DNA from: an uncultured Candidatus Saccharibacteria bacterium
GTDB taxonomy: Bacteria > Patescibacteriota > Minisyncoccia > Phycocordibacterales > CAYSCM01
Length of the DNA: 64,000 nt
Direction: 5' to 3'
Assembly (NCBI GenBank): GCA_964429815.1
Contig: CAYSCM010000001.1
Span: forward strand, 416,001 to 480,000
Shown here: piece after piece, positions 4,679-61,420 of the stretch
Position numbering within the stretch: the first letter of the stretch is position 1
Layout: each line of letters begins with the position of its first letter
The notes under the pieces: model-generated
Seen by the model: only the letters and a program-made list of their open reading frames with translations
Database searches by the model: none
Told to the model about the DNA's origin: nothing
Position numbers and translations under genes: made by a program

Positions 4679-5083
4679 ATGTTCGAGCTTATCGCGAGAC
4701 TGCAAAAGAAATCCGAGCACGAGCGTCAGGCGATCGCTTTTTGGGTCGCCGCAAGCGTGACCGGCGTCATCGCGCTTGGCTGGTTTGTCTCCGTCATGAC
4801 GCTCCGGAGTGCACCGGCGGCGAATACCGCAGCCTCGGATTCATCGCTTCCCGGTACCGGGCAACTTCAAAATATCGGGACATCCGCCGTGAATTTCTAC
4901 GAACAATTCAAACAAAATCTTGACCAGGTCCGCTCGGGCCTCTCGGGCCAGACTCAAACTGAAGGTAGCGTACAGCCGGCACCCCCAGGGGGGAGTGTCA
5001 CTGATACGACCTCATCAAATAACGAGCCCCCGCCCGCGCGAGCGCCCTCTCAGCCTATATGGGAGGGGAATGGAGGGCAATAA
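4679..5083 (+). CDS. hypothetical membrane-anchored protein (one TM, low-complexity C-terminus)
   Basis: 134 aa. ATG overlaps the upstream stop (TAACCATG). TM segment [22 protein letters not shown]-terminus is S/T/P rich. Confidence 0.5.
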
Positions 5084-5085
5084 CC

Positions 5086-7554
5086 ATGGCTGACGATAAA
5101 AAAACGAACTACGAGCACCAAAGCATCCTTCCGCGCAGCATCAGCGCGGAGATGAAAGAAGCGTACCTCGACTACGCGATGAGCGTTATTACGAGTCGCG
5201 CACTCCCTGATGCACGTGACGGCTTAAAGCCGGTGCACCGCCGCATTCTCTACACGATGCATCGACTCGGACTCGCCTCGACCGCGAAGGCACGCAAATC
5301 AGCGACCGTCGTCGGCGATGTGCTCGGTAAGTTCCATCCGCATGGCGATGTGGCAGTCTACGATGCGATGGTGAAGATGGCCCAAGATTTCGTCATGCGC
5401 TACCCGCTCATCGTGGGGCAGGGCAACTTCGGTTCGATAGACGGCGACTCCGCCGCAGCCATGCGCTACACCGAGGCAAAAATGTCGCGCATCGCCGTCG
5501 AGCTCCTGCGCGACCTCGACAAAGAAACGGTCGAGTGGCGTCCCAACTACGATGGCACGCTCAAAGAGCCCGTCGTGCTGCCCTCTGCGGTTCCGAACCT
5601 TCTCTTAAACGGCACTCTCGGCATCGCGGTCGGCATGGCAACGAACGTTCCCCCGCACAACCTCGGTGAGGTGATCGATGCGACCATCCACCTCATTGAA
5701 AACGACGAAGCGGGAAATGAAGATCTTCTCCAGTTCGTCAAAGGCCCCGATTTTCCAACCGGCGGCATCGCGTACAACCAAAAAGATATTTCGCACGCCT
5801 ATGCGAGCGGGAAGGGGGGCGTGGTTGTTCGCGGCGAGACGGAAATTTCTGAAGATAAGAAAGGGCAGTTCCGCATCGTCATTTCCTCCATCCCGTACCG
5901 CGTTAATAAAAGTGATCTCATTGTAAAGGTTGCCGATCTGGTGCGCGAGAAGAAGCTCGAAGGCATCCGCGACATCCGCGACGAATCGACCAAGGACATC
6001 CACATCGTCGTTGAACTGAAGCAGGGTGCTCAGCCGCAGAAGGTACTCAACTATCTCTTCAAGCACACGCCGCTTGAGGAAACCTTCCACTACAACATGC
6101 TCGCACTTGTCGACGGCGTACCGCAGACGCTCTCGCTCAAGGGCATTCTCGAGGAATTTATCAAGCATCGTCGCGAGGTGGTAAAGCGCCGCACGGAGTT
6201 TGACCTCAAGGTCGCCGAGGATCGCGAACATATTTTGCTCGGTCTTTCCAAGGCGCTTGATCATATCGATGCCATCATAAAGATCATAAAGGCGGCTAAA
6301 GACGTGCCGACCGCTAAGGTGGATTTGATGAAGAAGTTTAAGTTTTCTGATCGCCAGGCGGATGCGATCTTGGAAATGCGACTTTCAAGGCTTGCGGGGC
6401 TTGAGCGCAAAAAGATCGAGGATGAACTCACCGAGGTACAAGCGCTCATCAAAAAGCTCAAAGATATTCTCTCGAGCCCGAAGAAAATCCTTGCCGTCGT
6501 CAAAGAGGAGCTCGTCGCGATTCGAGAAAAGTACGCGGACGACCGAAGGACGAAAGTCGTGAAGGGCGGCGTGAAAGAGATATCCGATGAGGATCTCATT
6601 CCGGATGAGGAGAGTGTGCTCGTTCTCACCGCTGGCGGCTACGTGAAGCGCACCAACCCTTCTGAGTACCGCAAACAGAAGCGCGGCGGTGTCGGCGTCG
6701 TCGACCTCGATACGAAAGAAGAAGATTTTGTCACGACCTTCCTCACCACCTCGACCCATGCGGACCTTCTCTTCTTCACCGACCGCGGCAAAGCCTACCA
6801 AATAAAAATGTACGACATTGCGGAGGGGCGCCGCGCGACGAAGGGGAAGTCCATCATGAACTACCTGCCGCTCAGCGACGGTGAAAAGGTCTCGTCCATC
6901 CTCGCGATGCCAAAATCAGCAAAGAAAGCCGAGGGACTCGCACTTCTCATGGTCACCAAAAACGGTGTCGCGAAAAAGGTGAAGGCCCAGAGCTTCTACG
7001 ACGTGCGCCGCTCAGGCCTCATCGCCATTACCCTTAAAGAAAAGGGTGATGAACTCATTTCCGCAAACTTTGTCGAGAAGGGGGACCATGTGATCGTCGC
7101 CACCAGCAAGGGCCAATCCATCCGCTTTAAGGAAAGCGATATTCGCGAAATGGGGCGCACCGCCGCAGGAGTGCGCGCTATGAAACTTGGGAAGAAGGGA
7201 GACGCGGTTGTCGCTGCAGAAATCATCAAAAAAGGTGACAACACCGCGGAGCTCCTCGTGCTTAGTAAAAAAGGCTACGGTAAAAAAACCAAAGCGAGCG
7301 AATACAAAGTACAGCACCGTGGCGGCTCGGGCATTAAGACTTCGAAAGTCACGGACAAAACAGGAGAAATTATTGCCTCGCGCATCGTGACCCCGGAAGA
7401 TGTCGCGGAGGGTGAGCTTGTCGTCATTTCTAAGAAGAGCCAGGTTATCCGCACCGACCTCAAGGCCGTGCCGACACTCTCTCGCGCAACGCAGGGGGTG
7501 CGTATTATGAAGCTTCGCGAGGGAGACGCGATCGCAAGCTTCGTCTGTCTGTAG
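5086..7554 (+). CDS. gyrA: DNA gyrase subunit A
   Basis: [30 protein letters not shown] and the full GyrA length. Start taken at ATG 5086 (MADDKK) right after the upstream stop, again a TAACCATG junction. No gyrB in the window. Confidence 0.92.
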
Positions 7555-7602: not shown

Positions 7603-8130
7603 ATGGCCTTTTTAGAACCGAAGAAGGCGGTGAAGTTCTTTGGTGTTAACGAAGGCATGAAGGTTGCCGATTTTGGTGCGGGTATCGGCGCATTTGCGCT
7701 CGCGGCCGCCGAAGCGGTCGGGGGAAGCGGCATTGTCTTCGCCATCGACCTCCAGAAAGAACTCCTCGCAGGGCTCAAGAAAGAGGCTCGACGCAGAAAA
7801 CTCAACCTCGAAGTGCTCTGGGGCGACCTTGAGAAAGAAGGCGGAAGTCATATCAAAGATGATCTTCTCGACCTCGTCATTGCGACCAATATTCTTTTCC
7901 AGCTCTCCGAGCGACCGGCGTTTTTGCGCGAGGGGAAGCGTATTCTCCACCCCAAGGGCCGTCTCATTCTCATCGACTGGAGCGATTCTTTCGGAGGACT
8001 GGGGCCGCGGCCGGAGGATGTTGTCACCGATACCCACGCCCGCAAGCTCGCCGAGGAAGCGGGCTTCGTTTACGATAAAGATATTCCTGCGGGGGACCAC
8101 CACTGGGGAGCTATTTTTAGAAAACCATGA
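7603..8130 (+). CDS. class I SAM-dependent methyltransferase
   Basis: Motif I VADFGAGIGAFALAAA, then IDLQKELL and a post-motif II region. 175 aa. Confidence 0.7.
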   Translation: MAFLEPKKAVKFFGVNEGMKVADFGAGIGAFALAAAEAVGGSGIVFAIDLQKELLAGLKKEARRRKLNLEVLWGDLEKEGGSHIKDDLLDLVIATNILFQLSERPAFLREGKRILHPKGRLILIDWSDSFGGLGPRPEDVVTDTHARKLAEEAGFVYDKDIPAGDHHWGAIFRKP

Positions 8131-8256
8131 ATCCCGTAGTAGAATTTTTGCTTGCGCGAAGCGCGATACGAAACCTCAAACCATGAGCGGCACGATCATC
8201 AGCTTCTCGTTACGAAATGCTATTTTTAGTTTATCTAGCCGAAATCTCACCACAGG

Positions 8257-9552
8257 ATGAAGACCTTTCAAACCGCCATTTTGCTTATTTTTGGGGCGCT
8301 CGCGCTCATCGGGGTGCTTGTCTTTGCGACCGTGAGCAACCAGAGCTCCGGCGGTATCGGAGCGGTTGCCGTTTGGGGGACGCTCCCGAAGGATTCCGTC
8401 GACTCGCTCCTCGCGCAAATAGAGACAAACCGTCATGACTTCGACCAGGTGCGCTACACTTACATCGACCCGGCGCTCTATGAGCAAAAGCTTCTTGAGG
8501 GGTTTGCCTCCGGCACAGGCCCCGATCTTTTCCTCGTACCGCAGGAGTCCCTTCTTGCACAAACGTCCCATATCGCTCCGATAGGTTATTCAACACTCTC
8601 GCAACGGGCGTTCAAGGACCGGTTCGTCCAGGAAGGGGAGCTCTACCTCAAGGACTCCGGCGCCCTGGCGCTTCCTCTTACGATCGACCCGCTAGTTCTC
8701 TATTGGAATCGGGACATGCTGGCGAATGGAGGCATCGCCAAACCGCCAAGCTTTTGGGATGAGCTCGTGACGCTCGCGCCGAAGCTCTCCGTGCGCGACA
8801 GCAAGGGGACCGTAACGCAATCGGCTATTGCACTTGGCGAGTACCGCAATATCACCAACGCAAAAGCCATTCTCTCCGCTCTTTTCATGCAGGCGGGGGA
8901 TTCTATCGTTTCTCGTGATGCGGACGGCAACCCCTACGCGTCGCTCGCGGCGGAAAATTCCTCGCTTACCTCCGCGGGACCCTCGGCGATTCGCTTCTAT
9001 ACGCAGTTCGCGAACCCCATCAACACCATCTATTCCTGGAACCGCGCGCTTCCCGAATCGCAAAAAGCGTTTTTGGCAGGGAGTCTGGCGTTTTATGTGG
9101 GGTTCGCGAGCGAAGCGGCAGGACTCCGCGCCCAAAATCCCAACCTAAACTTTGATGTCGCTCCATTGCCGCAAACGCGCGACATAAAAAATAAGCTCAC
9201 TTACGGCGCGATGCAGGCCATTTCGGTCCCCAAGACGACGCACAACCTCTCCGGCGCCACAGCGGTCGCGCTCGAGCTAGTGTCGGACGCCAACCTCGCA
9301 TATCTCGCCGACAAGCTCGGACTTCCGCCAGTGTCCCGCGCAGATCTTTCCTCACAGCCCCCCAGTGCCGCTCAGCAAGTGTTTTATGCGAGTGCGCTCA
9401 TAGCACGTGGATGGCTCGATCCGGCTCCGGAAAAAACGAATACTATCTTCCAGGATATGATCGAGGGGGTGACGAGCGGGAAGTTTGAAATTTCCGACGC
9501 ACTCTCTCGTGCATCCCTTGCGCTCGATGAGCTTTTACGAGGTAATCAATAG
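8257..9552 (+). CDS. extracellular solute-binding protein (ABC-type, family 1), orphan
   Basis: N-terminal TM/signal, then a DLFLVPQESL...LPLTIDPLVLYWNRDML...FLAGSLAFYVGFASE pattern typical of SBP_bac_1. No permease or ATPase genes adjacent. Confidence 0.6.
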   Translation: MKTFQTAILLIFGALALIGVLVFATVSNQSSGGIGAVAVWGTLPKDSVDSLLAQIETNRHDFDQVRYTYIDPALYEQKLLEGFASGTGPDLFLVPQESLLAQTSHIAPIGYSTLSQRAFKDRFVQEGELYLKDSGALALPLTIDPLVLYWNRDMLANGGIAKPPSFWDELVTLAPKLSVRDSKGTVTQSAIALGEYRNITNAKAILSALFMQAGDSIVSRDADGNPYASLAAENSSLTSAGPSAIRFYTQFANPINTIYSWNRALPESQKAFLAGSLAFYVGFASEAAGLRAQNPNLNFDVAPLPQTRDIKNKLTYGAMQAISVPKTTHNLSGATAVALELVSDANLAYLADKLGLPPVSRADLSSQPPSAAQQVFYASALIARGWLDPAPEKTNTIFQDMIEGVTSGKFEISDALSRASLALDELLRGNQ

Positions 9553-9553
9553 T

Positions 9554-9964
9554 ATGTTTCGCAAAAACCGTATTGCCTTATCCGCTCTTGCACTACTTTT
9601 AGCACCGGCCCTTACACTTGCGCAGCAAGGCAGTTTTTCGGGAAATGGCGTTCAATTTTCATTCCGAAACCCCCTTGGTCCAAATGTGAATGATCTCGGC
9701 ACCTTCCTTAAGCTCCTCCTTAATTTTGTGACTGAGCTAGCGATCCCCATAATTGTCCTCATGCTCATCTACACCGGCTTTAAATTCGTCGCGGCACAGG
9801 GGAATTCAGACAAACTCGCGGAAGCGCGGCGCATACTCTTGTGGACTCTCATCGGCGCGGGCATTATTCTCGGGGCCAACGCGATACTCCTTGCCATTCA
9901 AGGCACGGTGACCCAAATACGGGGGGCAACGGGGCTTGTCGATATCTTCTCGCACCTCACGTAG
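9554..9964 (+). CDS. TrbC/VirB2-like (T4SS-type) pilin-like protein, paralog 1
   Basis: 137 aa: signal peptide (ALTLA-QQ), then two hydrophobic helices (LAIPIIVLMLIYTGFKFV; ILLWTLIGAGIILGANAILLAI). ATG overlaps the upstream stop (ATAGTATG). Track ORF 9485 start is moved to 9554. Confidence 0.55.
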   Translation: MFRKNRIALSALALLLAPALTLAQQGSFSGNGVQFSFRNPLGPNVNDLGTFLKLLLNFVTELAIPIIVLMLIYTGFKFVAAQGNSDKLAEARRILLWTLIGAGIILGANAILLAIQGTVTQIRGATGLVDIFSHLT

Positions 9965-9967
9965 CCC

Positions 9968-10306
9968 ATGAAGCGACCACTTCGAACGCTTGTCCTCACA
10001 CTGCCACTCCTCGCGCCTTCCGTAGCGCTCGCGGCGGCGCGGCCGCAAAATTTCGCCGACTTCGTCCACCACCTCACGAGGCTCCTTAACCTTACGATCC
10101 CCATCGCATTCGCTATCGCACTTCTTGCGTTCTTCTGGGGGCTAGTGAAATTCATATACCTCTCCTCCGAGAGCGATTCGGCCCGTGAAGATGCCAAAAA
10201 CATCATGCTCTACGGAGTGCTCGCGCTTTTCGTCATGCTCTCGGTGTGGGGCTTCGTGCGGATTCTCCAGGAGACTATCTTTGGTACCTCGGGCATTCTT
10301 CCGTAG
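9968..10306 (+). CDS. TrbC/VirB2-like pilin-like protein, paralog 2
   Basis: 112 aa: signal peptide, then IPIAFAIALLAFFWGL...EDAKNIMLYGVLALFVMLSVWGFVRILQETIFG. Two-TM topology shared with paralogs 3 and 4. Confidence 0.6.
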   Translation: MKRPLRTLVLTLPLLAPSVALAAARPQNFADFVHHLTRLLNLTIPIAFAIALLAFFWGLVKFIYLSSESDSAREDAKNIMLYGVLALFVMLSVWGFVRILQETIFGTSGILP

Positions 10307-10405
10307 AGAGCTTGTCCACATTGACCCTTTTACGCTCCGAGAGCGAGGGCGTACTATAAGCTCGTACAACAATTAGCAAACCTTAGCCCATAAATCGACA
10401 TTTTC

Positions 10406-10759
10406 ATGCGTAAATACGCTTTACTCGCAACCGCCTATCTTCTCCCCGTCGTTGTATTCGCGCAGGGGAGCGGCGTTGAAGGGCTTCTCAACAAGCTCTC
10501 CCGCTGGATAAACATCGCGACCCCGATAGTTTTTGCGCTTGCACTCCTAGCGTTTTTCTGGGGCCTCGCGGTCTATGTTTTTAACACCGGTGATGAAGAA
10601 AAGCGCAAGCAGGGCAAGGACATCATGATCTGGGGCGTCATCGCGCTTTTCGTCATGGTCTCGGTCTTCGGCATCGTGCGCATTATTCGCGAGACTTTCG
10701 GCATTAGCGCCAACGAAACCGCTCATATCCCGACCGTTCAAGGGACGAACGCTCAATAG
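10406..10759 (+). CDS. TrbC/VirB2-like pilin-like protein, paralog 3
   Basis: 117 aa: signal peptide, then TPIVFALALLAFFWGL...GKDIMIWGVIALFVMVSVFGIVRIIRETFG. Clearly homologous to paralog 2. Confidence 0.6.
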   Translation: MRKYALLATAYLLPVVVFAQGSGVEGLLNKLSRWINIATPIVFALALLAFFWGLAVYVFNTGDEEKRKQGKDIMIWGVIALFVMVSVFGIVRIIRETFGISANETAHIPTVQGTNAQ

Positions 10760-10768
10760 CGTTGGCCA

Positions 10769-11032
10769 ATGACCGCGGCCACCACTTTCGTCAGGGCGAT
10801 AAACGACTACATCATCAACCCTATCATCGGGCTCCTCTTTGCTGCGGCCATGGTCCTTTTTATCTGGGGCGGCGCGCAAATGATTTTCTACCCTGGCACC
10901 GAAGATAAGCGCGAGGACGGCAAGCGTCACCTCTTTTGGGGCATCATCGGGATGTTCATCATGGTCTCGGTCTACGGACTCCTCAATCTCATCACGAGCA
11001 CATTCGGCCTCCCGCACGTCGTCAGCCACTAA
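10769..11032 (+). CDS. TrbC/VirB2-like pilin-like protein, paralog 4 (short N-terminus)
   Basis: 87 aa: IIGLLFAAAMVLFIWGG...GKRHLFWGIIGMFIMVSVYGLLNLITSTFG. Same core motif as paralogs 2 and 3. Confidence 0.55.
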   Translation: MTAATTFVRAINDYIINPIIGLLFAAAMVLFIWGGAQMIFYPGTEDKREDGKRHLFWGIIGMFIMVSVYGLLNLITSTFGLPHVVSH

Positions 11033-11037
11033 AAGAA

Positions 11038-11065
11038 AACGGGCCGCACTTGCGTGCGACCCGTT
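11038..11065. terminator. intrinsic terminator shared by convergent genes
   Basis: Stem aacgggccgcac/gtgcgacccgtt (1 mismatch), loop ttgc. On the minus strand it is followed by UUUCUUUUAG. Lies between the pilin-4 stop (11032) and the minus-gene stop (11081). Confidence 0.5.
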
Positions 11066-11080
11066 GGTCGTAAAGAACAG

Positions 11081-12109
11081 TTAGAGCTTGTTGTACCAAT
11101 ACTTGAGTGGAACCGGTTCACCCACGATCGAGCGGAACCGAATGCACTTAGTGGGCTTCATTCCTTCGTTGAAGAAGCCCTGATACACCTTGATGGTACC
11201 GTCGTGGAAGTATGCTGCGGCGACTATCTTCAAAATGCCCGGATTCTCCGTCCGGTACATCAAGTTGTAGCCGTCAGGAATGGGCACGCAGCGTGACCAC
11301 TCGGTCGGTACCAGGAAGGTTGAACCTTCAGCCGTAAAGGCAGGGTGGACACGTGGTTGGACCCGCGTTGGTGCCGCCTTGGCCTCCTGGAAGTAGTGGG
11401 GGAACATCTTCGGTGCGGTGTAGATCGCAATTGCGATTGCGAGCAGTGCCGCGAATCCGCCGGCGAAATAGTGACCGACTTCCTGCTTCGTCTTTCCCTT
11501 GCGCGACCCGAGGATGACCACCAACGCAACGGCCGCCACGAATGCGTAGTAAAACGCGAGGTAGGGCTTGAAGTTGTTGATCCACCAGAATTTAAGCTCG
11601 GGGTCGCCCTTCCAGTAGGCAAAAAAGTAGAGGATCGCTGGGATGAAGATCCCCATGAAGGCGATCCATACCATTGTGCCACCCGTGAGGTTGCCCTTAA
11701 TGAACTTGCCGATCTTCGGCAGGGTCCAAAGAAGGATGAACGCAACAAACAGGATGATGCCCGCTTGCATCAGGAAGTCGACGAGTGGCTCACCGGTGAG
11801 GGTGAGTAGGTCGAGCTCCTCCATAGTGTTGTACGTCCAGAGCGAAAGCACGGGGTAGTAGGCGTAGACGAGCAGGCCCACGATCGTCGCAAAGATGATC
11901 GCGAGGATTACGATGCGACGCCGTTGCTTTTTCGGCGCAGTGGTTGTGGTTTGGGTCGTCGTGGTCTGCTGAGCCTGCTGCGATTGTGCGGGCGGTTGAG
12001 CGGAAGCTTGCGCTTGCCCACCCTTGACGGTAGCGATGGTGCCCGAGGCGACCGCCCCGGTCATTTTCATTGCCGCCGTGCTCGCTGAGTAGCGTTGTAC
12101 GGCCATCAC
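11081..12109 (-). CDS. polytopic membrane protein (5 predicted TM + about 100-aa C-terminal soluble domain), function unknown
   Basis: 342 aa. Q/T-rich N-terminus, TM helices (IVILAIIFATIVGLLVYAYY, MVWIAFMGIFIPAILYFFAYW, others), C-terminal domain with two Cys. Start overlaps the upstream SPFH stop (ATGA). Confidence 0.5.
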   Translation of the reverse strand: MMAVQRYSASTAAMKMTGAVASGTIATVKGGQAQASAQPPAQSQQAQQTTTTQTTTTAPKKQRRRIVILAIIFATIVGLLVYAYYPVLSLWTYNTMEELDLLTLTGEPLVDFLMQAGIILFVAFILLWTLPKIGKFIKGNLTGGTMVWIAFMGIFIPAILYFFAYWKGDPELKFWWINNFKPYLAFYYAFVAAVALVVILGSRKGKTKQEVGHYFAGGFAALLAIAIAIYTAPKMFPHYFQEAKAAPTRVQPRVHPAFTAEGSTFLVPTEWSRCVPIPDGYNLMYRTENPGILKIVAAAYFHDGTIKVYQGFFNEGMKPTKCIRFRSIVGEPVPLKYWYNKL

Positions 12110-13299
12110 TTATCTCCTTCTTTTGGCTTGAGACCTTGGGGGACGGCTTTGATCACCGCCCCGAGCGTGGCCGCGGGGGATGCGAGACCGTCGGCGCCGA
12201 CGGCGATGAAGGTATCGACTTCCTTAGCCACTTGGACTGCAGTGTCGCGTGCGAAGATGAGTTCGAGCGCACGCGGCTTGTCGCCGCCTTGCGCCGCGAG
12301 CTTTTCGATCGCTTGTGCGTCTCCTTCCGCCTCGTACGAGGTAGCATCTCCCTTCGCCCGACCAGCAATACGGGTGGCCTCACCCTCGGCAAGCGCCTGA
12401 GCGGGCTTCTGTATCGACGTATTGAGCGCGTGAGAGAAATTGAAGAGCTTGATGTTGGCGGTATCGACTTCGACGCCGCCCTTGCCAAGTTTCTCTTCAA
12501 TGAGTGTTCGCAGGTCTACGTTGATAGTCGACGTGCCCCGAAGGGCCTCGGCTGCCGTCCTCGACGGAAGTGTTTCGCTCAGCCCCGTCACGATTGTGTC
12601 TTCAGCTTGCTTCATGGCGGCCGCAAGGTCGCCATTGTACAGGACGAAGAACTCTCGCAAATTTCCTTTTTCGGGTCTGATCTTAAGGATCGCAGCGACC
12701 TCCGCAGTGATGCGGCGGTCGAGCGGATCCTGACCATCCTTGCCGGCGAACGTGATACGCACCGGCGGGTAGTACCCCTCAGCGACGGTGTCTTTGTCGC
12801 CACGATCAACGAGTTCCGGCTCGCTCGGGATCTCTTTTTGCAGCAGCTCGAGATCGGTGATCCGGAGCATGCTGAGAAAGAGGGGAGCATAAACGGGCCC
12901 GTTGGGAAGTTCGCAAACGACCCAGCCGAAGATGCTGAGCACTGCTCCTTCGTTGATATCTACCTCCTCGAAGCTCTTCCACGTGTAGAGTGTGAAGAGC
13001 ACAAGAAGGATCGGGATCACGGGAATGTTGAGCTGGCCGAGCTTGATTGAACTTGCCCCGAGGTTGGAGTAAACGACCAGCAAGGCAAAACTAAGAAGGA
13101 GGATGTTGGCGAAGAGTGCAGCAAGGTGCCAGACGAACCAATTTCTGGTCAAGCGCCCCATCACCGAAGCCTTGTGCCGTTCCTCGTCGGAACCGCCTGA
13201 GGCGGGACCTGCAGGGGGCGTTGGTGGGGTGGGAGGGGCTGGAGGTGTTGGAGTCCCAGCGCCGTTTGGCGGCTGGGTTGGCGTTGCTGTCTGTTGCAT
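12106..13299 (-). CDS. SPFH/band-7 (stomatin/prohibitin-like) domain protein with Pro-rich N-terminus
   Basis: 397 aa. PTPP repeats, one TM, then a band-7 core (VDLRTLIEEKLGKGGVEVDTANIKLFNFSHA...AEGEATRIAGRAKGDATSYEAEG). Confidence 0.7.
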   Translation of the reverse strand: MQQTATPTQPPNGAGTPTPPAPPTPPTPPAGPASGGSDEERHKASVMGRLTRNWFVWHLAALFANILLLSFALLVVYSNLGASSIKLGQLNIPVIPILLVLFTLYTWKSFEEVDINEGAVLSIFGWVVCELPNGPVYAPLFLSMLRITDLELLQKEIPSEPELVDRGDKDTVAEGYYPPVRITFAGKDGQDPLDRRITAEVAAILKIRPEKGNLREFFVLYNGDLAAAMKQAEDTIVTGLSETLPSRTAAEALRGTSTINVDLRTLIEEKLGKGGVEVDTANIKLFNFSHALNTSIQKPAQALAEGEATRIAGRAKGDATSYEAEGDAQAIEKLAAQGGDKPRALELIFARDTAVQVAKEVDTFIAVGADGLASPAATLGAVIKAVPQGLKPKEGDK

Positions 13300-24263: not shown

Positions 24264-24347
24264 CTAGCTTCGCGCGTCGGTGGCGGAGTGGTCAATCGCA
24301 CCTGACTGTAAATCAGGCGGCTTTATGCCTACGGGGGTTCGAATCCC
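24264..24347 (+). tRNA. tRNA-Tyr (anticodon GTA), type II
   Basis: Acceptor GCGUCGG/CCGGCGC (one U-G), anticodon stem CCUGA/UCAGG with loop CUGUAAA, long variable arm CGGCUUUAUGCCUAC, T-arm GGGGG-UUCGAAU-CCCUC. No encoded CCA. Confidence 0.8.
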
Positions 24348-24489
24348 TCCCGGCGCACTACGTGACAAGTACTCTAAATAAGAGTACTGTTAAGAGCAGA
24401 GTACCTGTAGCGCGACGCTGCAGGTGCGTTCCTAGGGCAAGCGTGATGCTTGTCTAACAATACGGCGCGATGCCGTAAGGAGTAGTACC

Positions 24490-24915
24490 ATGAGACGTTC
24501 GAATGTTGACGCAATTTATGCGGAAAATCCCTTTCTGTCGAAAGTGATCGCGAGAGTCAAGGTTCCAGATGCGCAGGTGAAGCGCTGGAACGAAGATTTC
24601 CTCGGCAGCACACCCGACACCTACCCTGATTCAGGAACTGAAAAGATTTACCTGATCGACGGACAAGGCAACAAGATCGTACGCGTGGGAAGTCTTTCTG
24701 ATCGAATCACTGGATTCTTTGGACTCCACCAGAACAGCGAAACGGTCGGACAGGCCTTAGCGCGTATCGGCGACAAAACTCGCCAGGTGCAGTACGCGGT
24801 CGGAGAGTGGAACGGGAGGGTCATTTTGTGGAAACTCCCGAACGGCTACAACAACGCAGCCGATTGGTTGAGGTCGCGGATTGCGGAAGCTCGGGCTGAG
24901 CTGAAAGCATCCTGA
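24490..24915 (+). CDS. hypothetical protein (141 aa), lower GC than neighbours
   Basis: Strong SD (taAGGAGtagtacc-ATG). Followed by two intrinsic terminators. No recognisable domain. Confidence 0.45.
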   Translation: MRRSNVDAIYAENPFLSKVIARVKVPDAQVKRWNEDFLGSTPDTYPDSGTEKIYLIDGQGNKIVRVGSLSDRITGFFGLHQNSETVGQALARIGDKTRQVQYAVGEWNGRVILWKLPNGYNNAADWLRSRIAEARAELKAS

Positions 24916-24940
24916 TCAACCTACCAGAATAATTGTTTGA

Positions 24941-24973
24941 CCCCAGGCAATCCGGCCTGGGGTTTTATGTTTT
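24941..24973 (+). terminator. intrinsic terminator
   Basis: ccccagg-caatccgg-cctgggg, then ttttatgtttt. Confidence 0.65.
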
Positions 24974-25013
24974 CTGATCTAAAACCATTCCGATATCGTT
25001 CCATACGGCGCAC

Positions 25014-25055
25014 CAAAACAAAAACCCACAGCGAAAGGCTGTGGGTTTTTGTTTT
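25014..25055. terminator. bidirectional intrinsic terminator
   Basis: A-tract, cccacagc-gaaag-gctgtggg, then tttttgtttt. Confidence 0.6.
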
Positions 25056-25073
25056 GGCTCTATACTTAACTCA

Positions 25074-26366
25074 ATGAGCAAAAAGCTCGCCTTCTTTATA
25101 TTTATTGTGTCTGTCGTTGCCGTGTTGGTCGCGACAGCAGTGCAGACATCCGCGGCTCCCATCGTGCCGCAGGTATCCGCCCAGCCCGGCTCTGTTGAAG
25201 GCGGTCCGCTTCGCGCCTGCGACCTCCTCACCCTCTACAACAACATCCTCCGGTTCGGGATCTATGCTGCGACGGTTATTGCGACCCTCATGCTTACCTA
25301 CGCGGGCTTCCTCTACATCACCTCCTCGGCCAAGATAGGAAACATTGAAAAGGCACACGGGATTTTTACCAATGTCATCATCGGCTTCATCATTGTCCTC
25401 GTCGCGTGGCTTATCGTCTCGACTCTTTTGCGCGTGTTTACCGCGCAATCGAACTACAATCCGTTCGCCGCGATACAGTGCAATGTTGAAACACCGACGA
25501 CGACGCGCAACGTCACCCCTGCCGGATTTGAAACACAGTCCTATTCTGACTATCCCACCGGTCTTCCCGCCGGAGAGGTTCCGGTGTGCCTCACCGCCGA
25601 TAGCGACAGCAATTGCACCACCTACGCTTCCATCGGGCTGCAAGACTCGACCCTTCTTGAGTGCCAGGATCCCGGAGCAACCGGCGAGCAGTACTGTTGC
25701 TCGATGACTAACGCCGACGGCTCATGTAAGCTAGCGGTCACGGTCGGGCCAAATGGCCAACCTTCCTACAACAACGATGTGGGTGAGAATCTCTACGTAA
25801 ATCCGAATGTGGGGCTCACTGGCGTTGCCCCGACAGAAGGTATTTGCTCCCCGGATGCGCTCCAGAGCGTGTGGGGAGATAACGCCGCAACCGCTGGGTG
25901 CATATGCGCTTCAGAAAGTGGTGGGGGGCTCTACAACGGCATTACGGGCCCGCGCACGGACGTCATGCTCATCGATCAACAGCAGCCAGATGGTTTTTAT
26001 CCAGGTTTTTCGGCATGCCCATTCCAGCTCAACGTCACGAGCCTTCCGGCACAATATGGTGGATGTGGCGCGTATACCTGCAATACCAACACACAGGCGT
26101 GTATGATAAACGGTGTATTAACGCCACCCAATCCCACGAAATGCGATACAAATGTATCAGCCTATGAGCAAACCCTTGGATACAAGGAAGGGGCTCTGAG
26201 TCGAAACGGAGGCTATTGCCATGTGATAACCAATCAACCCGCCTTTAACTCCTGCGTGCAAAACCTTCTTACACCCGGGGGATGTGCCAAGGGAGCTCAA
26301 TATCTTCTTGCCAATGGCGGCTGGGCGCACTGGAGTACGAGCGCTAAAAAATGCCGAGCTATATGA
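25074..26366 (+). CDS. pilin-like (TrbC/VirB2-type two-TM domain) N-terminus fused to a large Cys-rich extracellular domain
   Basis: Start set to ATG 25074 (MSKKLAFFIF); the track start 25041 lies within the terminator. Signal peptide, then LRFGIYAATVIATLMLTYAGFLYITS...NVIIGFIIVLVAWLIVSTLLRVF, then about 300 aa rich in Cys/Gly/Thr/Asn. The N-terminal domain is paralogous to 26920-27813. Confidence 0.5.
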   Translation: MSKKLAFFIFIVSVVAVLVATAVQTSAAPIVPQVSAQPGSVEGGPLRACDLLTLYNNILRFGIYAATVIATLMLTYAGFLYITSSAKIGNIEKAHGIFTNVIIGFIIVLVAWLIVSTLLRVFTAQSNYNPFAAIQCNVETPTTTRNVTPAGFETQSYSDYPTGLPAGEVPVCLTADSDSNCTTYASIGLQDSTLLECQDPGATGEQYCCSMTNADGSCKLAVTVGPNGQPSYNNDVGENLYVNPNVGLTGVAPTEGICSPDALQSVWGDNAATAGCICASESGGGLYNGITGPRTDVMLIDQQQPDGFYPGFSACPFQLNVTSLPAQYGGCGAYTCNTNTQACMINGVLTPPNPTKCDTNVSAYEQTLGYKEGALSRNGGYCHVITNQPAFNSCVQNLLTPGGCAKGAQYLLANGGWAHWSTSAKKCRAI

Positions 26367-26923
26367 GAAAACTATTACTCACCATCGTGCTCCTTCTTGT
26401 AGCGGTTGTCATCGGTGGTGGAATCTACGTATTCCTCGTTTCGCGCAGCACCCAGCCGGCAAGCGTACAAAACGAAACGGGAACTTCGCCTTTTGGCAGC
26501 GGCGCAGGAGCTATTCCTTCTGGCGGCAGCGGGCAAGGAAATACCACGTCCAGCCAAACCTCGGAGCAATTCATCGTCCTGGGAGCTGACGGTAGCATGA
26601 TTTCGGTAGCTGACTTCCGCTCAGAGCCGGGAGTGCAAGAGCTTTCTGACGGGAGCTATCGGCTCGGTCCATTCACCGGAAGCTCGACGTATCAAATTCT
26701 CTACTATGCCGCCGACAAGAGCTTCACGGTGACTCTTCTCGAGGAGCCACTGGGAGCCACGAGAGAGAGCGCAGAGCAGTACCTCATGAATGCTCTCCAA
26801 ATCGGCAAACCCCAGATGTGCAGATTGCGCTATGGTGTCTACGTGCCCATCAAGATCAGCCAGTTCTATGCGGCCACCAATCTCGGATTTAGTTTCTGTC
26901 CTCGCGCGATAAAACTACCATGA
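26351..26923 (+). CDS. hypothetical membrane-anchored protein (N-terminal TM, extracellular domain)
   Basis: 190 aa. Overlaps both neighbours; an alternative ATG at 26363 forms an ATGA overlap, and its 3' end forms ATGA with the next gene. TM LLLTIVLLLVAVVIGGGIYVFLV. Confidence 0.45.
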   Translation: MPSYMRKLLLTIVLLLVAVVIGGGIYVFLVSRSTQPASVQNETGTSPFGSGAGAIPSGGSGQGNTTSSQTSEQFIVLGADGSMISVADFRSEPGVQELSDGSYRLGPFTGSSTYQILYYAADKSFTVTLLEEPLGATRESAEQYLMNALQIGKPQMCRLRYGVYVPIKISQFYAATNLGFSFCPRAIKLP

Positions 26924-27813
26924 TACGCACCGCCGCAATCGCGCTCATTCTCTTGTGCGTCTTTGTCGTGACACCCTTTGCGCACGCGCAGAGTTTTGCT
27001 GGTCCCATAGTCCCCGATTGTGGTGGTGGCCCGTGCCAAGCCTGCCACCTCGTAAAGCTTGCGGACAACCTCCTGCGTTTCGGCATCTATCTGGCGACCG
27101 TCATTGCGACTCTAATCCTTGTCTATGCGGGTATTCTCTACATCACCTCAGCGAGCAACCCCAGCAATATTTCGAAAGCACACAGTTTATTTGGGAATGT
27201 CATTCTCGGTTTTATCATCATACTCATCGCTTGGATCGTCGTTGCTACGCTGCTGCGGGTTTTTCTCGGACAGGGCAAAGCTCTTCCGTGGGAGCAGCTC
27301 ACCTGTAACGTCACGGCGAATCCTGGCCCGACACCCTCGACCACGCCTCCAGGACTAACCGTAGCACCCCTTGCAGCTCCGCCAGGGGAAGGACAGCTCA
27401 CTGATCCGCAGGCGCGCCTTTCAATTGCCGCCTATAATGAGTCTCATCCTGACGCGCAGGTGTTAACTTGTGGTGATACAGCTTCCTGCCCGGCAATTCG
27501 CGACCGCGTCCTGTACGGCGGTATTGATAACGGCCTTCTCCAAAATGTCCTTGATACTACCTCTGCGGCCAATAGGGGGAACACCATTGTTACCTCCGCG
27601 GCAAATGAGCGTACTTCAGCTTCCAATCACCCAAGCGGCAATGCAATTGATATATACGGCACAAGCGCTTTCAATGCCTATGTTCAAAGCTTTCCGGCGG
27701 TCCCAGGTCTTTCAAACACATACCAGGTCGGGAATTATCGATACTGGTGGGAGCCATCAGGCACGGCTAATTCAACAGGGGACCATTGGCATATCTCAAA
27801 GACCGGACGTTGA
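26920..27813 (+). CDS. pilin-like (TrbC/VirB2-type) N-terminus fused to a peptidase-M15-like (Zn D-Ala-D-Ala carboxypeptidase/cell-wall hydrolase) C-terminal domain
   Basis: N-terminus LLRFGIYLATVIATLILVYAGILYITS...NVILGFIIILIAWIVVATLLRVF parallels 25074. C-terminus carries SNHPSGNAIDIY and GDHWHIS, matching the M15 S-x-H-x-x-G-x-A-x-D and D-x-x-H zinc-ligand motifs. Confidence 0.5.
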   Translation: MIRTAAIALILLCVFVVTPFAHAQSFAGPIVPDCGGGPCQACHLVKLADNLLRFGIYLATVIATLILVYAGILYITSASNPSNISKAHSLFGNVILGFIIILIAWIVVATLLRVFLGQGKALPWEQLTCNVTANPGPTPSTTPPGLTVAPLAAPPGEGQLTDPQARLSIAAYNESHPDAQVLTCGDTASCPAIRDRVLYGGIDNGLLQNVLDTTSAANRGNTIVTSAANERTSASNHPSGNAIDIYGTSAFNAYVQSFPAVPGLSNTYQVGNYRYWWEPSGTANSTGDHWHISKTGR

Positions 27814-27873
27814 CGCCTTCCTCGCGGTCTTGTATATTCTCCTTCACAGGGCAAGGCCCTTATTTTAATTTTC

Positions 27874-28032
27874 ATGTCACAAGATAGGCTTCTCAGGCTC
27901 AATTGCAGCGTCTGTAAGAACACCAATTATTGGACGAGCAAAAATAAAAAACTTGTCGAGCGCAAACTCGAGTTTAAAAAGTATTGCAAATTCTGCCGCA
28001 AGCAGACTATCCACAAGGAGGCAAAGAAATAA
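27874..28032 (+). CDS. rpmG: 50S ribosomal protein L33
   Basis: 52 aa, absent from the ORF track. MSQDRLLRLNCSVCKNTNYWTSKNKKLVERKLEFKKYCKFCRKQTIHKEAKK has the L33 CxxC...C..C zinc-ribbon and KLE-KK-C pattern. Confidence 0.8.
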   Translation: MSQDRLLRLNCSVCKNTNYWTSKNKKLVERKLEFKKYCKFCRKQTIHKEAKK

Positions 28033-28034
28033 TC

Positions 28035-28067
28035 AAAACACCGCCCCCAGGGGCGGTGTTTTGATTT
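28035..28067. terminator. bidirectional intrinsic terminator after rpmG
   Basis: aaaacaccgcccc-cag-gggcggtgtttt. Confidence 0.7.
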
Positions 28068-28098
28068 GAGGAGGGGAGTAAGGTAATTTAGATACGTT

Positions 28099-28170
28099 GG
28101 GCCTATAGTTTAATTGGTAAAACAGCGGTCTCCAAAACCGCCATTCCCCGTTCAAGTCGGGGTGGGCCCG
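28099..28170 (+). tRNA. tRNA-Trp (anticodon CCA)
   Basis: Acceptor GGGCCUA/UGGGCCC, anticodon stem GCGGU/ACCGC with loop CUCCAAA, T-arm CCCCG-UUCAAGU-CGGGG. The classic rpmG-tRNA-Trp linkage. Confidence 0.85.
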
Positions 28171-29071
28171 CCTGGAATTTATACGAGAGCGCTTTCTTCG
28201 CGGACGAAAACCAACGTATGCCGTTGTCACGTTTCCACCACGTCATCTGTCGACGCGAGAACTGCCAAATGGCAGCCTCAAGCCGCGTGAGCATCTCCTC
28301 TTTGGATAGTTTCCCCTCAAGGTAGTCGGCGAGATAGCGATACTCAAGTCCAAGCTCACGCATGCGCTTCAAGCGGAGCCCCCTTCGTCGTAGGCGCTTC
28401 GCCTCAGCGACCATTCCCTCTCGTATACGGGCATGAAGACGTTTCGCAATGTTGGCTCGGAGTTGCGAGTCTTTTGGCCGTATCCCGATTGTTACTGCCT
28501 CGTAGCGTGGTTTCGGGAGCTCTGCGGTTTTTTCTGCTGCGAGTGCGACCTCGATGGCGCGAATGAGACGCACGGGATTTTGCTTGTCGATAGTGAGATA
28601 GCGACGCGGGGCGAGCTCTTTAAGGAGTGTTTTGAGTTCTGGGAGCGTCTTCTTTCTTAAATGATGTCTGAGAGCGGCGTCTGGCCGGACATTGGCAAGC
28701 TTTGTCTTACCGAGTGCGGCATCGATGTAAAACGCCGAGCCGCCGACCATGATGGGCAGTTTACCGCGCCGCGCTATATCCTCGATAGCGGCGCGGGCAG
28801 CGATAGCGAAATCATACGCAGTGAAGACCCGCTTAGGGTCAGCGATGTCGAGGAGGTGATGGCGGACACCTTTCATCTCACGTTTCGTAATTTTGCCCGT
28901 GCCAATCGTGAGACCGCGATATACCTGTCGAGAATCCGCGGAAATTATCTCGCCGTTAAGTTTTTTTGCCAGTCGCACACCCAGGCCGCTTTTCCCAGAG
29001 GCTGTGGGGCCGACTATAACGAGCACTTTTGTTCTTACGGACCTGTTTTTGTATACTTCTTTCGTACTCAT
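28103..29071 (-). CDS. miaA: tRNA dimethylallyltransferase
   Basis: VLVIVGPTASGKSGLGVRLAKKLNGEIISADSRQVYRGLTIGTGK and the RRQMTWWKRD C-terminal motif. The last about 22 codons overlap tRNA-Trp on the opposite strand. Confidence 0.85.
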   Translation of the reverse strand: MSTKEVYKNRSVRTKVLVIVGPTASGKSGLGVRLAKKLNGEIISADSRQVYRGLTIGTGKITKREMKGVRHHLLDIADPKRVFTAYDFAIAARAAIEDIARRGKLPIMVGGSAFYIDAALGKTKLANVRPDAALRHHLRKKTLPELKTLLKELAPRRYLTIDKQNPVRLIRAIEVALAAEKTAELPKPRYEAVTIGIRPKDSQLRANIAKRLHARIREGMVAEAKRLRRRGLRLKRMRELGLEYRYLADYLEGKLSKEEMLTRLEAAIWQFSRRQMTWWKRDNGIRWFSSAKKALSYKFQAGPPRLERGMAVLETAVLPIKL

Positions 29072-56656: not shown

Positions 56657-58288
56657 ATGACGGCTCACACCCGTATCGCTATGCTGTATTTGCGCCTCAT
56701 TTGGAGACAATTGAAAATAGTCGGAGCGCACCTTAAGACCATCGGCAAAATTGTCTGGTCGTTCGCTAAATCGCACAAAATCGTGAGCTCGATCGTAGCG
56801 GCCGCCTTGGCCACAGGCCTTGGTGCGGCCGCTTATTTTGGCGCCAGCAAGGCCGCGACGACGATAGCGGAGGGTCCTGCCGTCCACCTCGTGCGCGTCG
56901 GCGACGTGTCCGCCTCAGCTCCCATTTCGCTCATCGGCATCGTGCGCGCCACGCGGGAGGCCAATGTCGCTCCGGATATTTCTGGCACGGTCTCGGCCGT
57001 GTACCGCAACCTCGGTGACTACGTGCCCGCCGGGACCATCATCGCGGAGCTTAAAAACGACACGCAGCGCGCTGCCGTGGCGGCTGCTCGCGCGGCGCTC
57101 CAAAAAGCCCAAAGCGGCAGCGTCGTCGGCGGCATCAGCGTCGAGAACGCCCAGAATTCCTACGCCGCAGCCATCGATACCGCACGGTCAACGGTACAAA
57201 GCGCATACTCGACCATTGATGACGCTATCGCACGAAAAGCGGATCAAACGTTTTCAAACCCCAACAGCCCGCAGCCGCATTTCAACGTCTCAAGCTCTAA
57301 TTCGCAGCTCGTCGTCAATGTTCAAAATGACCGTTTGGCTATGCAGGCCATTCGGGCGCGCGAGAGCACGGTAGTGGTAGCTACACTCTCTCCAGGCGAT
57401 CTCCTTGCCGAACTCTCCTTACTTGGAAGTGAAGTAAAGTCCGTTCAAAACTTCATGCAGGACCTGGTCGCCGCACTTAATGCCGCCGTTCCCACCTACG
57501 GGATCACTGAAGCGACTATCGCAGGCTATCGTGCGGACGTATCAGCAGGGCTCGCCAGCATTAATGCGCTTGCGAGCTCACTGCCGGGAGTATCCGAGAT
57601 GCTCAAAACAAAACGTGCCGCGGTCGACATCGCTCAGACGTCGCTTGCAACCGGCTCCACGGGAGAGAGCGCCGACGTTGCGGCTGCGGAGGCGAACCTC
57701 GCGCTCCAACTCGCCGGACTTGAGAAAACGCTCATCCGAGCCCCCATCTCCGGGACCGTCAATAGGCTCGATCTCGACGTCGGCTCTTTCGTCAACGCAT
57801 CGGTCCCAATCGTCTACATCACGAGCGCCGGTGGTCTTGAAGTGGTCGCCTTCGTTTCGGGAAATGACATCGCTGACATCGCCGTCGGAGCCAAAGCGAA
57901 GGTAGGCGCCAGTGTTGACGGGGTAGTCGCACGCGTCGCAAGCGCCCTCGACCCTCTGACGAAAAAGGCGGAAGTGCGGGTCTTTGTACCGCCGTCCGCT
58001 CCGCTGGTCGCAGGACAGTCGGCGACCGTCTCTGTAGAGCGCTCCGCGCCAAAGGTCCCGTCGGCAAATCCGACCCTCACCGTCCCCCTCACCGCGATCA
58101 AGATAACGCCGCAATCTCCCTTGGTGTTCACCGTGAACGACGCGCACCAGCTCGTCGGAAATCCCGTGGTTCTCGGAACCCTGCGCGGGGACAGCGTCGA
58201 CATTGTAAGCGGCGTTACCGCCACCATGCAGATAGTCGAGGACGCCCGCGGGCTTAAGGAAGGACAGGCAGTTATCGTAAATCCCTAA
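56657..58288 (+). CDS. efflux RND transporter periplasmic adaptor subunit (HlyD/MFP family)
   Basis: N-terminal TM, long alpha-hairpin region, beta-barrel/MP domains (LIRAPISGTVNRLDLDVGSFV). Directly upstream of the RND permease. Confidence 0.8.
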   Translation: MTAHTRIAMLYLRLIWRQLKIVGAHLKTIGKIVWSFAKSHKIVSSIVAAALATGLGAAAYFGASKAATTIAEGPAVHLVRVGDVSASAPISLIGIVRATREANVAPDISGTVSAVYRNLGDYVPAGTIIAELKNDTQRAAVAAARAALQKAQSGSVVGGISVENAQNSYAAAIDTARSTVQSAYSTIDDAIARKADQTFSNPNSPQPHFNVSSSNSQLVVNVQNDRLAMQAIRARESTVVVATLSPGDLLAELSLLGSEVKSVQNFMQDLVAALNAAVPTYGITEATIAGYRADVSAGLASINALASSLPGVSEMLKTKRAAVDIAQTSLATGSTGESADVAAAEANLALQLAGLEKTLIRAPISGTVNRLDLDVGSFVNASVPIVYITSAGGLEVVAFVSGNDIADIAVGAKAKVGASVDGVVARVASALDPLTKKAEVRVFVPPSAPLVAGQSATVSVERSAPKVPSANPTLTVPLTAIKITPQSPLVFTVNDAHQLVGNPVVLGTLRGDSVDIVSGVTATMQIVEDARGLKEGQAVIVNP

Positions 58289-58294
58289 ACCGCC

Positions 58295-61200: not shown

Positions 61201-61420
61201 CCGGCCAATAATCCTCACCACGCTTACGACCGTCATCGGCATGGTGCCGCTCGCGGGCGCGTCAGCGCTGTGGGGCCCGCTCGCGTTTGCCATTATGTTC
61301 GGCCTCGCCTTCGCGATGGTGCTCACGCTTGTATTGACACCCATCCTTATTTTCCGACATCCCGGTAAAGAGTTTTGGAAGGAGCCTCAATCTGCAGCGC
61401 ACGGTAGTGCAAACGCTTAA
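58295..61420 (+). CDS. efflux RND transporter permease subunit (AcrB/HAE1-like)
   Basis: 1041 aa, 12 TM with two large periplasmic loops, conserved TM4 region (LSLFSLILAIGILVDSGIVVTEAI). Confidence 0.9.
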   Translation: MSGLWNFFIERRQFTILVMIALTAAGLVAVIAIPKENAPEVKVPVAVIATTLRGASAADVTKLVTKEIEKEVGTVENLHKLTSSSREGVSVVTAEFEASANLDKSIQNIKDAVDRAKPNLPRDADEPVITRVSFSDQPILIISISGGLPPTEFASLAKDVKDQLELVAGVSSVDVAGTREREADVVVRREALDAYGLTLSDVVGAIGAANASLPIGTITVDKVEYAIAFHGDLNDPEDLLGVTVGQVGGRPVYLRDIADIVNGIERAKTISRASVHGSPAEPAVTLSVHKRAGANIFLTGSAVKKKLSELSATTLSGLTTSISIDLGAEVSKSLGELTRVGVETVILVILCLLLTIGWRESIVAGLSIPLSFVIAFSGLYLSGNTINFVSLFSLILAIGILVDSGIVVTEAIHTRLKRFGEPIFAAKEAIREYAWPLTAGTLTTVAVFAPLFFISGITGQFIASIPFTVIFVLIASIFVALGLVPLIAIMFTKTELNGLERLQEEWNLKLQRRYRAWLLRILGDGAFQRKFLRGMTAGFIIALILPMTGLVKVIFFPQSDSEYAYLEIETKQGTPLAQTDLAARGVEELLYGDPRIASFVTTIGATSPLSQSPTSGTKYANITIRLVPEKNRAQSSTKIVNELRNKVAVFHDFTVRALEPQGGPPTGAPVVITFSGENLDDLEKAADLGERTLKEIPGAIEVTTSTKDNGTQFGLTIDRGKAAEVGLTPVQVASALRTAVSGTIATTIKSDARDIDVLVLSNLNPNWRDPTDTTEATIDSVMNLSIKTPRGSVLLGSILASGIERNSAIIKREDQKNIATVSSYLLPGKTAGEVSSAFSTAIKKVDFPKGVAMKIGGETANVDQSFQEMFYALIGGMVLMLAILVLAFNSFRYSFYLLMLVPLALIGVFAGLAITRQPLSFPSLLGVIALAGVIINHAIILVDSMIVRMKNPEGRGLPEVVADAAVSRFRPIILTTLTTVIGMVPLAGASALWGPLAFAIMFGLAFAMVLTLVLTPILIFRHPGKEFWKEPQSAAHGSANA

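Follow-up and report, generated by a model that had tools for sequence, protein, structure and literature searches.

A tandem array of four small genes was analyzed, lying between positions 9554 and 11032 of the window, i.e. the whole stretch of 64,000 nucleotides (nt) taken from contig CAYSCM010000001.1, which is 501,704 bp long. All four genes are on the plus strand and encode VirB2/TrbC-type proteins, the pilin family of type IV secretion systems (T4SS). Gene 1 (9554 to 9964; 136 amino acids, aa) is of the TrbC/VirB2-like type, as defined by the Pfam families PF18895 and PF04956 and by positional orthology. Gene 2 (9968 to 10306; 112 aa) is a middle-type copy, matching PF18895 and sharing 46 % identity with gene 3. 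Gene 3 (10406 to 10759; 117 aa), described by PF18895, orthology and an AlphaFold2 model, is the most conserved member, and gene 4 (10769 to 11032; 87 aa) is a short type devoid of a signal peptide, recognized by PF18895 and by the length of its orthologues. The initial annotation of this sequence had reported the same four consecutive open reading frames (ORFs) with exact coordinates; its lengths of 112, 117 and 87 aa for the last three are correct, while the first had been assigned 137 aa.

A single base separates the stop codon of an upstream gene, encoding a solute-binding protein, from the start of gene 1. The gaps between genes 1 and 2 and between genes 3 and 4 measure 3 and 9 nt, respectively, and genes 2 and 3 are separated by 99 nt. 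Pairwise identity among the four proteins ranges from 24 to 46 %. At the DNA level genes 2 to 4 share a common 94-nt segment, whose identity is only 61-71 %, and the duplications are therefore old, not recent.

Family assignment was based on profile hidden Markov models (HMM), using the curated gathering thresholds of Pfam (26.6 bits for PF18895, T4SS_pilin; 27.9 bits for PF04956, TrbC/VirB2). All four proteins exceed the PF18895 threshold, with scores of 30.7, 35.1, 46.6 and 40.7 bits for genes 1 to 4, a result far beyond chance for four genes and one family. Gene 1 also exceeds the PF04956 threshold (29.4 bits); gene 2 scores 13.8 bits with this model, and genes 3 and 4 do not match it. A profile built on 42 homologues found, as its best match among solved structures, the pKM101 pilin TraM (8cw4, expectation value E = 0.005), and a search of the PDB with the sequence of gene 1 gave no match. 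The identification as VirB2/TrbC-type pilins, proposed in the initial annotation, is supported by these comparisons. The NCBIfam model NF045849 (Mbov_0395 pilin-like conjugal transfer protein) was matched below its cut-off of 40 bits, with 21.0, 17.7, 34.2 and 31.8 bits for genes 1 to 4 and E from 1.5e-8 to 2e-3.

Homologues of gene 3 numbered 251 at E <= 1e-3; PF18895 is present in nearly all of the 120 listed, and one carries the NCBI name 'pilin'. The relatives all belong to Paceibacteria (Kaiser-, Zambryski-, Campbell-, Wolfebacteria and others), in agreement with the origin from the candidate phyla radiation suggested earlier. Gene 3 is only about 50-57 % identical to its counterpart in the closest species representative of the genome collection.

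The consensus originally noted for paralogs 2 to 4 is genuine, and becomes even stronger over 40 homologues, which conform to the pattern ...ALALLAFFWGLA.FIF..G.EE.K..GK.IMIWGIIALFVMVSVWGIV... Two hydrophobic helices, separated by a short charged loop, are evident in the alignments of all four proteins. In gene 1 they follow a predicted signal peptide (MFRKNRIALSALALLLAPALTLA, with cleavage expected before QQ) and a long mature N-terminus; in gene 3 the predicted signal peptide is MRKYALLATAYLLPVVVFA, with cleavage expected before QG, and the inter-helix loop is NTGDEEKRKQGKD. The AlphaFold2 model of gene 3 (mean predicted local distance difference test, pLDDT, 79.6) contains an N-terminal signal helix, followed by a helical hairpin formed by residues 23-59 and 64-98, with pLDDT about 90 and a 4-residue loop. 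Near the C-terminus of gene 3, in a tail predicted to be disordered, a proline (P109, within the motif I/V-P-x-V) is found in at least 90 % of the homologues; it could be a processing or recognition site.

A cleavable signal peptide had been attributed to each of the four proteins. This description applies to genes 1 to 3, whose N-termini contain a positive stretch, a hydrophobic stretch and a small-x-small motif (TLA-QQ, ALA-AA and VFA-QG, the hyphen marking the cleavage site predicted by reading the sequence), and does not apply to gene 4. The frame of gene 4 contains no start codon upstream of 10769, and its HMM match begins at profile position 25, corresponding to the mature part of the gene-3 type. 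Since a regular-expression detector proved too permissive, flagging helix 1 of gene 4, it was not used, and the comparison was based on the length of sequence preceding helix 1. Among 77 orthologues of the gene-4 type, with a median length of 88 aa, about 16 residues precede the first hydrophobic helix, versus about 38 in the gene-3 type; the absence of a signal peptide is therefore a constant trait of the gene-4 type. For gene 1 the start is ambiguous: public gene calls give either 92 aa and no signal peptide, or 137-145 aa; when read from the ATG at 9554, the protein begins with a textbook n-h-c signal peptide ending in TLA-QQ. A signal peptidase I gene (Peptidase_S26, from a precomputed Pfam hit to an identical gene product) is located at 536 to 1120 on the minus strand, and its product is a candidate for the enzyme removing the signal peptides of pilins 1 to 3.

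The array was compared with 80 related Paceibacteria loci, orthology being counted over 83 loci and junction lengths over 84. It is present in every related locus, and complete arrays include from 3 to 10 copies, most often 4 to 6. Their order is fixed: an optional gene of the pilX type (see below) is followed by the TrbC-like gene 1, the middle copies, the gene-3 type and the gene-4 type. Thus the gene-1 type opens the array or follows the pilX-type gene; about half of the related loci begin their array with such a pilX-type gene, devoid of the C-terminal extension. Middle-type copies vary from 1 to 8 per locus, and the short gene-4 type is the last gene in 73 of 83 arrays. An orthologue closer than any paralogue of its own genome was found for gene 1 in 80, for gene 3 in all and for gene 4 in 69 of the 83 loci, with a median identity across genera of 38-48 %, to be compared with the 24-46 % of paralogues within the genome. 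For gene 2 a closer orthologue was found in only 22 of 83 loci, and this gene seems to have arisen by lineage-specific duplication of the gene-3 type. Closer orthologues and fixed positions indicate that the paralogues are old, differentiated subunits, not interchangeable variants.

The 99-nt spacer preceding gene 3 (10307 to 10405, plus strand) deviates from the other junctions of the array. Measured over 84 loci, the median distance between the best-conserved pilin gene and its predecessor is 107 nt, whereas the other array junctions represented by at least 35 loci have medians between 0 and 13 nt. Within the spacer, the 9-mer TTGTCCACA, which resembles a DnaA box, is located at 10312-10320 and is followed by a weak promoter, formed by a -35 hexamer TTTACG (10329-10334) and a -10 hexamer TACTAT (10352-10357) separated by 17 nt. 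The sequence TTGTCCACA corresponds to the DnaA-box form described in high-G+C actinobacteria. Of 78 spacers, 46 contain a 9-mer with at most one mismatch from the DnaA box TTATCCACA, located immediately behind the stop codon of the gene upstream, whereas resampled spacers yield 3.0 +/- 1.7; no enrichment of the motif was detected in other intergenic DNA of the related loci. In other spacers G(G/T)GGATAAC is found, interpreted here as this core in reverse orientation. A clear promoter of the form TTGnnT-16/17-TAT(C/T)AT follows the motif in many relatives. The spacer has no match in Rfam. Because of its conserved length and of the DnaA-box-like motif, together with the hexamers, it is suggested to be an internal promoter for genes 3 and 4 carrying a conserved protein-binding site; DnaA is hypothesized to bind there.

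Additional elements were seen in the same region of other loci. In Zambryskibacteria-type loci (L007, L011, L038, L042, L044, L051, L075, L081 and others) a palindrome ATACC-N4-6-GGTAT is located just after the -10-like hexamer, its variants preserving the pairing; it could act as a 5' hairpin or as an operator. Further loci contain a conserved AAGGTCGT in the corresponding part of the gene-3 spacer.

The solute-binding protein encoded upstream of the array (8257 to 9552, plus strand, 431 aa) is a membrane-anchored, extracellular member of the SBP_bac_8 family (PF13416, E = 7.5e-18). Orthologues were detected in 76 related loci, each time as the gene immediately preceding the array; they are 41-65 % identical, and the search returned only those of the same clade. 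The protein appears to be an orphan, as no genes for an ABC permease or ATPase were found near it. Further upstream are a methyltransferase gene (7603-8130) and gyrA (5059-7554). In the 80 related loci the array always falls within a block composed of gyrA, in some cases the methyltransferase gene, the solute-binding-protein gene and the pilins, gyrA and a gene for a lactamase-fold protein being located upstream of the solute-binding-protein gene. The synteny conserved across the clade comprises the lactamase-fold gene, gyrA, the methyltransferase, the solute-binding protein, the pilins and, often, IF-2.

The candidate for the primary promoter of the operon is a promoter-like sequence, TTTAGA-18-TAGAAT, at 8116 to 8145 on the plus strand (9 of 12 matches in a consensus scan), within the 126-nt gap upstream of the solute-binding-protein gene; support for it is weak, since the region contains no more such sites than shuffled sequences do. 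At the opposite end, a G+C-rich hairpin with a 12 bp stem (11038 to 11065), detected by a terminator scan, separates the pilin operon from a convergent membrane-protein gene on the minus strand. The match obtained by the scan is on the minus strand and includes a T-run, the plus-strand side being preceded by an A-run, and the hairpin is likely to terminate both transcripts. A scan of the locus against Rfam revealed nothing relevant. A 160-aa ORF on the minus strand (10547-11029) was treated as spurious, because the plus-strand genes 3 and 4, which it overlaps, are conserved family members.

The convergent gene (11081-12109, minus strand) encodes a protein that matches no family and contains five hydrophobic segments, and overlaps by 4 nt a gene for an SPFH/Band 7 protein (12106-13299, minus strand). 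A similar convergent pair, with poorly conserved sequences, occurs in roughly two thirds of the related loci. The two proteins were considered as VirB6-like partners of the pilins and rejected, as they have no match to such families, are poorly conserved and are missing from many loci; the pair looks like the ordinary combination of an SPFH protein and a membrane partner.

A second pilin-related cluster, composed of three genes, is also present in the window. The first, pilX441 (25041 to 26366, plus strand, 441 aa from the first possible start), matches PF18895 with 31.0 bits; its T4SS_pilin module covers residues 64-129 and is followed by a cysteine-rich C-terminal region of about 300 aa, for which no Pfam match was found. 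The second (26351-26923) encodes a membrane-anchored protein of 190 aa with no family match. The third, pilX297 (26920 to 27813, plus strand, 297 aa), scores 24.1 bits with PF18895, i.e. below threshold, and joins a VirB2-like N-terminal module to a C-terminal domain of 178 residues. This domain carries a zinc signature of the LAS/M15 type (SxHxxGxAxD ... GxHWHxS), invariant in five distant relatives. A full HMMER search retrieved these five true relatives among 1.84 billion representative proteins, three of them also containing the pilin module, while a word-based search returned only the protein itself and one N-terminal relative. Matches of pilX297 to PE, ankyrin and chitin-binding proteins were discarded as low-complexity false hits. 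One relative has a sub-threshold Peptidase_M15_4 match, and the top PDB profile matches of the C-terminal domain are hedgehog and a zinc D-Ala-D-Ala carboxypeptidase. The domain is therefore, with moderate confidence, a probable LAS/M15-type zinc cell-wall peptidase, and pilX297 may be a pilin-anchored enzyme of this kind. The cluster is bracketed by tRNA-Tyr (24274-24358) and tRNA-Trp (28099-28172), has a G+C content of 52-53 %, versus 55-59 % in most of the window, and may be an acquired island (24274-28172). Elsewhere in the window, a gene for a resistance-nodulation-division pump (AcrB family, 1041 aa) adjoins one for an HlyD-type membrane-fusion protein (56657-61420), a pairing that is less typical of Patescibacteria than of two-membrane bacteria.

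The locus is probably best explained as a chromosomal operon of Paceibacteria (Parcubacteria), encoding a solute-binding protein and four VirB2-family subunits, which a distantly encoded VirB4 machine would assemble into a T4SS pilus or conduit. By analogy with known pilins, proteins 1 to 3 would be inserted into the cell membrane through Sec/YidC, and their signal peptides would be cut off by signal peptidase I. The processed proteins would reside in the membrane as hairpins of two helices, both termini facing outwards and the charged loop (NTGDEEKRKQGKD in gene 3) facing the cytoplasm. From this pool they would be extracted by an ATPase machine of the VirB4 type, encoded elsewhere in the genome, to form the pilus-like tube or conduit of the Patescibacteria T4SS, used in host-cell contact. 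The candidate for the major subunit is gene 3, which is the best conserved and has a promoter-like region in a spacer of its own. Genes 1 and 2 qualify as candidates for minor subunits, and gene 4, lacking a signal peptide, may be a minor or membrane-proximal one. The analysis demonstrates family membership, topology, conservation of the array, synteny and the lack of a VirB4 nearby; processing, extraction, assembly into filaments and the roles of the subunits are inferred.

Several observations weigh against this interpretation. As initially noted, the window encodes neither VirB4 nor VirD4: the ORFs scanned, i.e. those scanned among the ORFs of at least 250 aa plus 20 mid-size ORFs, gave no match to a T4SS ATPase or channel family (VirB4, VirD4, VirB6, VirB3, PrgI). 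A further 10 kb to the left of the window contains genes for HisRS, YbeY, FtsA, FtsZ and others, and no T4SS genes, so that a region reaching from about 20 kb upstream of the array to 53 kb downstream of it yielded no member of the VirB4, VirD4, VirB6 and VirB3 families. Similarly, none of the 80 related loci has a recurrent large ORF with a Walker A motif at 10 kb or less from the array, indicating that the usual linkage of the array to virB4 is missing in the clade. On the supporting side, seven related, array-carrying genomes were found in Table S1 of Quinonero-Coronel et al. 2025 (PMC12102498). There VirB4 is listed as present in six, i.e. Zambryskibacteria RIFCSPLOWO2_02_FULL_51_21, RIFCSPHIGHO2_01_FULL_46_25 and RIFCSPHIGHO2_02_FULL_43_14 and Parcubacteria C7867-005, Athens0714_16 and Greene0714_7, and as absent from the draft genome RIFCSPHIGHO2_01_FULL_43_25. 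Partner machinery encoded elsewhere, one of the two options left by the initial annotation, is hence the likely case, and a VirB4 in the source genome itself is predicted indirectly, from these relatives. In the papers examined, no pilus made of these proteins is reported from any member of Patescibacteria. Comparison of the structures with VirB2/TrbC, also proposed initially, produced the hairpin model described above, and was not discriminating in the subsequent step: Foldseek found no significant match of the gene 3 model in the PDB (best E = 1.0; the Aeropyrum pernix conjugative pilus ranked fifth, E = 1.6). This result neither supports nor refutes the assignment, because a bare helical hairpin is too simple a fold.

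In conjugation systems of wall-less and Gram-positive bacteria, small pilin-like proteins are thought to remain in the membrane as channel parts. The four proteins might similarly be T4SS components staying in the membrane as part of a translocation channel, with no extended pilus. This alternative appears unlikely, even if all four match the Mbov_0395 family of Mycoplasma integrative and conjugative elements (ICEs) below threshold (E 1.5e-8 to 2e-3), since the presence of differentiated paralogues and of a strongly conserved, promoter-preceded copy fits a polymer of major and minor subunits. The literature offers arguments in both directions: according to PMC12102498 and PMC10633639, VirB4 of Patescibacteria nests in the monoderm MPF-FATA class, whose systems generally lack a pilus, and a T4SS pilus of Patescibacteria is described only as a possibility in PMC12857230; a pilus is, however, the favoured reading for the essential array of Southlakia epibionticum in the latter review. 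That the array is independent of any T4SS, and forms with the co-transcribed solute-binding protein a membrane or surface assembly capturing or importing host-derived molecules, is decidedly improbable. The solute-binding-protein gene does abut the first pilin gene wherever it was detected (76 related loci), it has no neighbouring permease genes, and T4SS genes are not found within 10 kb of the array in any locus; membership in the VirB2 family and the occurrence of VirB4 elsewhere in most related genomes (six of the seven in Table S1) speak against it, and adjacency is weak evidence of a common function, because the whole region is syntenic across the clade.

A role in antigenic variation had been suggested in the initial annotation. 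Copies serving mainly surface variation, either antigenic or related to host range, have been proposed for the VirB2 paralogues of Bartonella and Anaplasma, and the idea is also raised in PMC12102498. The variation of middle-type copies from 1 to 8 between genomes, and the behaviour of gene 2 as a lineage-specific duplicate, would be in line with it, and the variable number of middle copies alone leaves room for diversification. The other copies do not conform: genes 1, 3 and 4 are ancient and fixed in position, more similar across genera (38-48 % median identity) than to their paralogues (24-46 %), and paralogues which keep their positions in this way do not favour antigenic variation. In addition, the comparison of array DNA revealed no near-identical repeats able to drive recombination, and the four genes are full-length, co-oriented and part of one operon, with no silent cassette. 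This is the least probable of the explanations considered.

A more far-reaching proposal for this large Paceibacteria clade has a low probability. In it the pilin array, passed on vertically as a core operon, would be uncoupled from the T4SS gene cluster and would share its transcript with an orphan solute-binding protein; its products would form a heteromeric structure of fixed order, from an optional pilX subunit, a TrbC-like subunit and the middle copies to the major subunit and a last, signal-peptide-less one, and the promoter of the major subunit would be under the control of a DnaA box. The cell would then make its host-contact conduit in step with the replication cycle, and host-derived molecules would be captured by the pilus and the solute-binding protein acting together.

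Patescibacteria make up a large part of bacterial diversity and depend on host cells. Tandem arrays of VirB2-like genes have already been published for them, and the locus therefore belongs to a known class (PMC12102498, PMC10633639). In PMC12102498 (Quinonero-Coronel et al. 2025), 3,035 Patescibacteria genomes were searched with PF04956, PF18895 and T4SS profiles, revealing VirB4 in 2,417; VirB2-like pilins were found in 1,948 VirB4-containing assemblies, in 1,135 of them near virB4, and 383 assemblies contained 441 arrays, made of 2-11 pilin genes whose mean identity is about 25 %. The array described here, made up of four adjacent genes with 24-46 % identity, corresponds to the definition reported there (2-11 PF04956/PF18895 genes, in tandem or separated by one gene, of low identity). 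In S. epibionticum the predicted pilin subunits encoded in the T4SS cluster are essential (Wang et al. 2023, PMC10633639), and a 2025 review (PMC12857230) presents its system as a T4SS that possibly forms a pilus in a bacterium with a single membrane. T4SS and pilin array are among the few features shown to be essential for the lifestyle of Patescibacteria, in one cultivated species.

Both the published arrays, including the six-gene array of S. epibionticum ML1 (PMC10633639), and the present one consist of small PF18895/PF04956 genes, chromosomal and in tandem, and identity is low in both sets (24-46 % here, about 25 % on average in PMC12102498). They differ in location, the S. epibionticum array being contained within the T4SS cluster, whereas that of Paceibacteria lies in the gyrA-solute-binding-protein block with no VirB4 within 10 kb. 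With the pilins VirB2, TrbC and TraA of Gram-negative bacteria (T-pilus, RP4 TrbC, pKM101 TraM, F TraA) the proteins share the signal peptide (predicted for genes 1 to 3), the two helices, the charged loop and a mature size of about 70-100 residues; gene 1 passes PF04956, and TraM is the best structure found by the family profile. Genes 2 to 4, in contrast, remain below the PF04956 threshold and gene 4 has no signal peptide; moreover, there is no outer membrane here, virB3 and virB4 are not adjacent, and four differentiated paralogues are found in place of a single pilin gene. Archaeal conjugation-like pili (CedA1 of Aeropyrum pernix, TedC of Pyrobaculum; PDB 8dfu) resemble the locus in being VirB2-like hairpins of single-membrane organisms, but the fold match, at rank 5, falls short of significance (E = 1.6), and similarity was not detected between the sequences. 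The Mbov_0395 family (NF045849) of Mycoplasma ICEs similarly includes small two-helix proteins of a single-membrane conjugation system; with 17.7-34.2 bits against a cut-off of 40, the four pilins are not members of it.

Compared with these systems, the locus is no new kind of system. New features are the order fixed over the whole clade, the linkage to the solute-binding protein, the absence of a nearby VirB4 and the internal promoter region with its DnaA-box-like motif; neither a fixed gene order nor a last gene devoid of signal peptide was met in the available text of PMC12102498 or PMC10633639. Through these features the locus offers hypotheses on subunit roles, on regulation and on a partner protein of the pilins for cultivable relatives.

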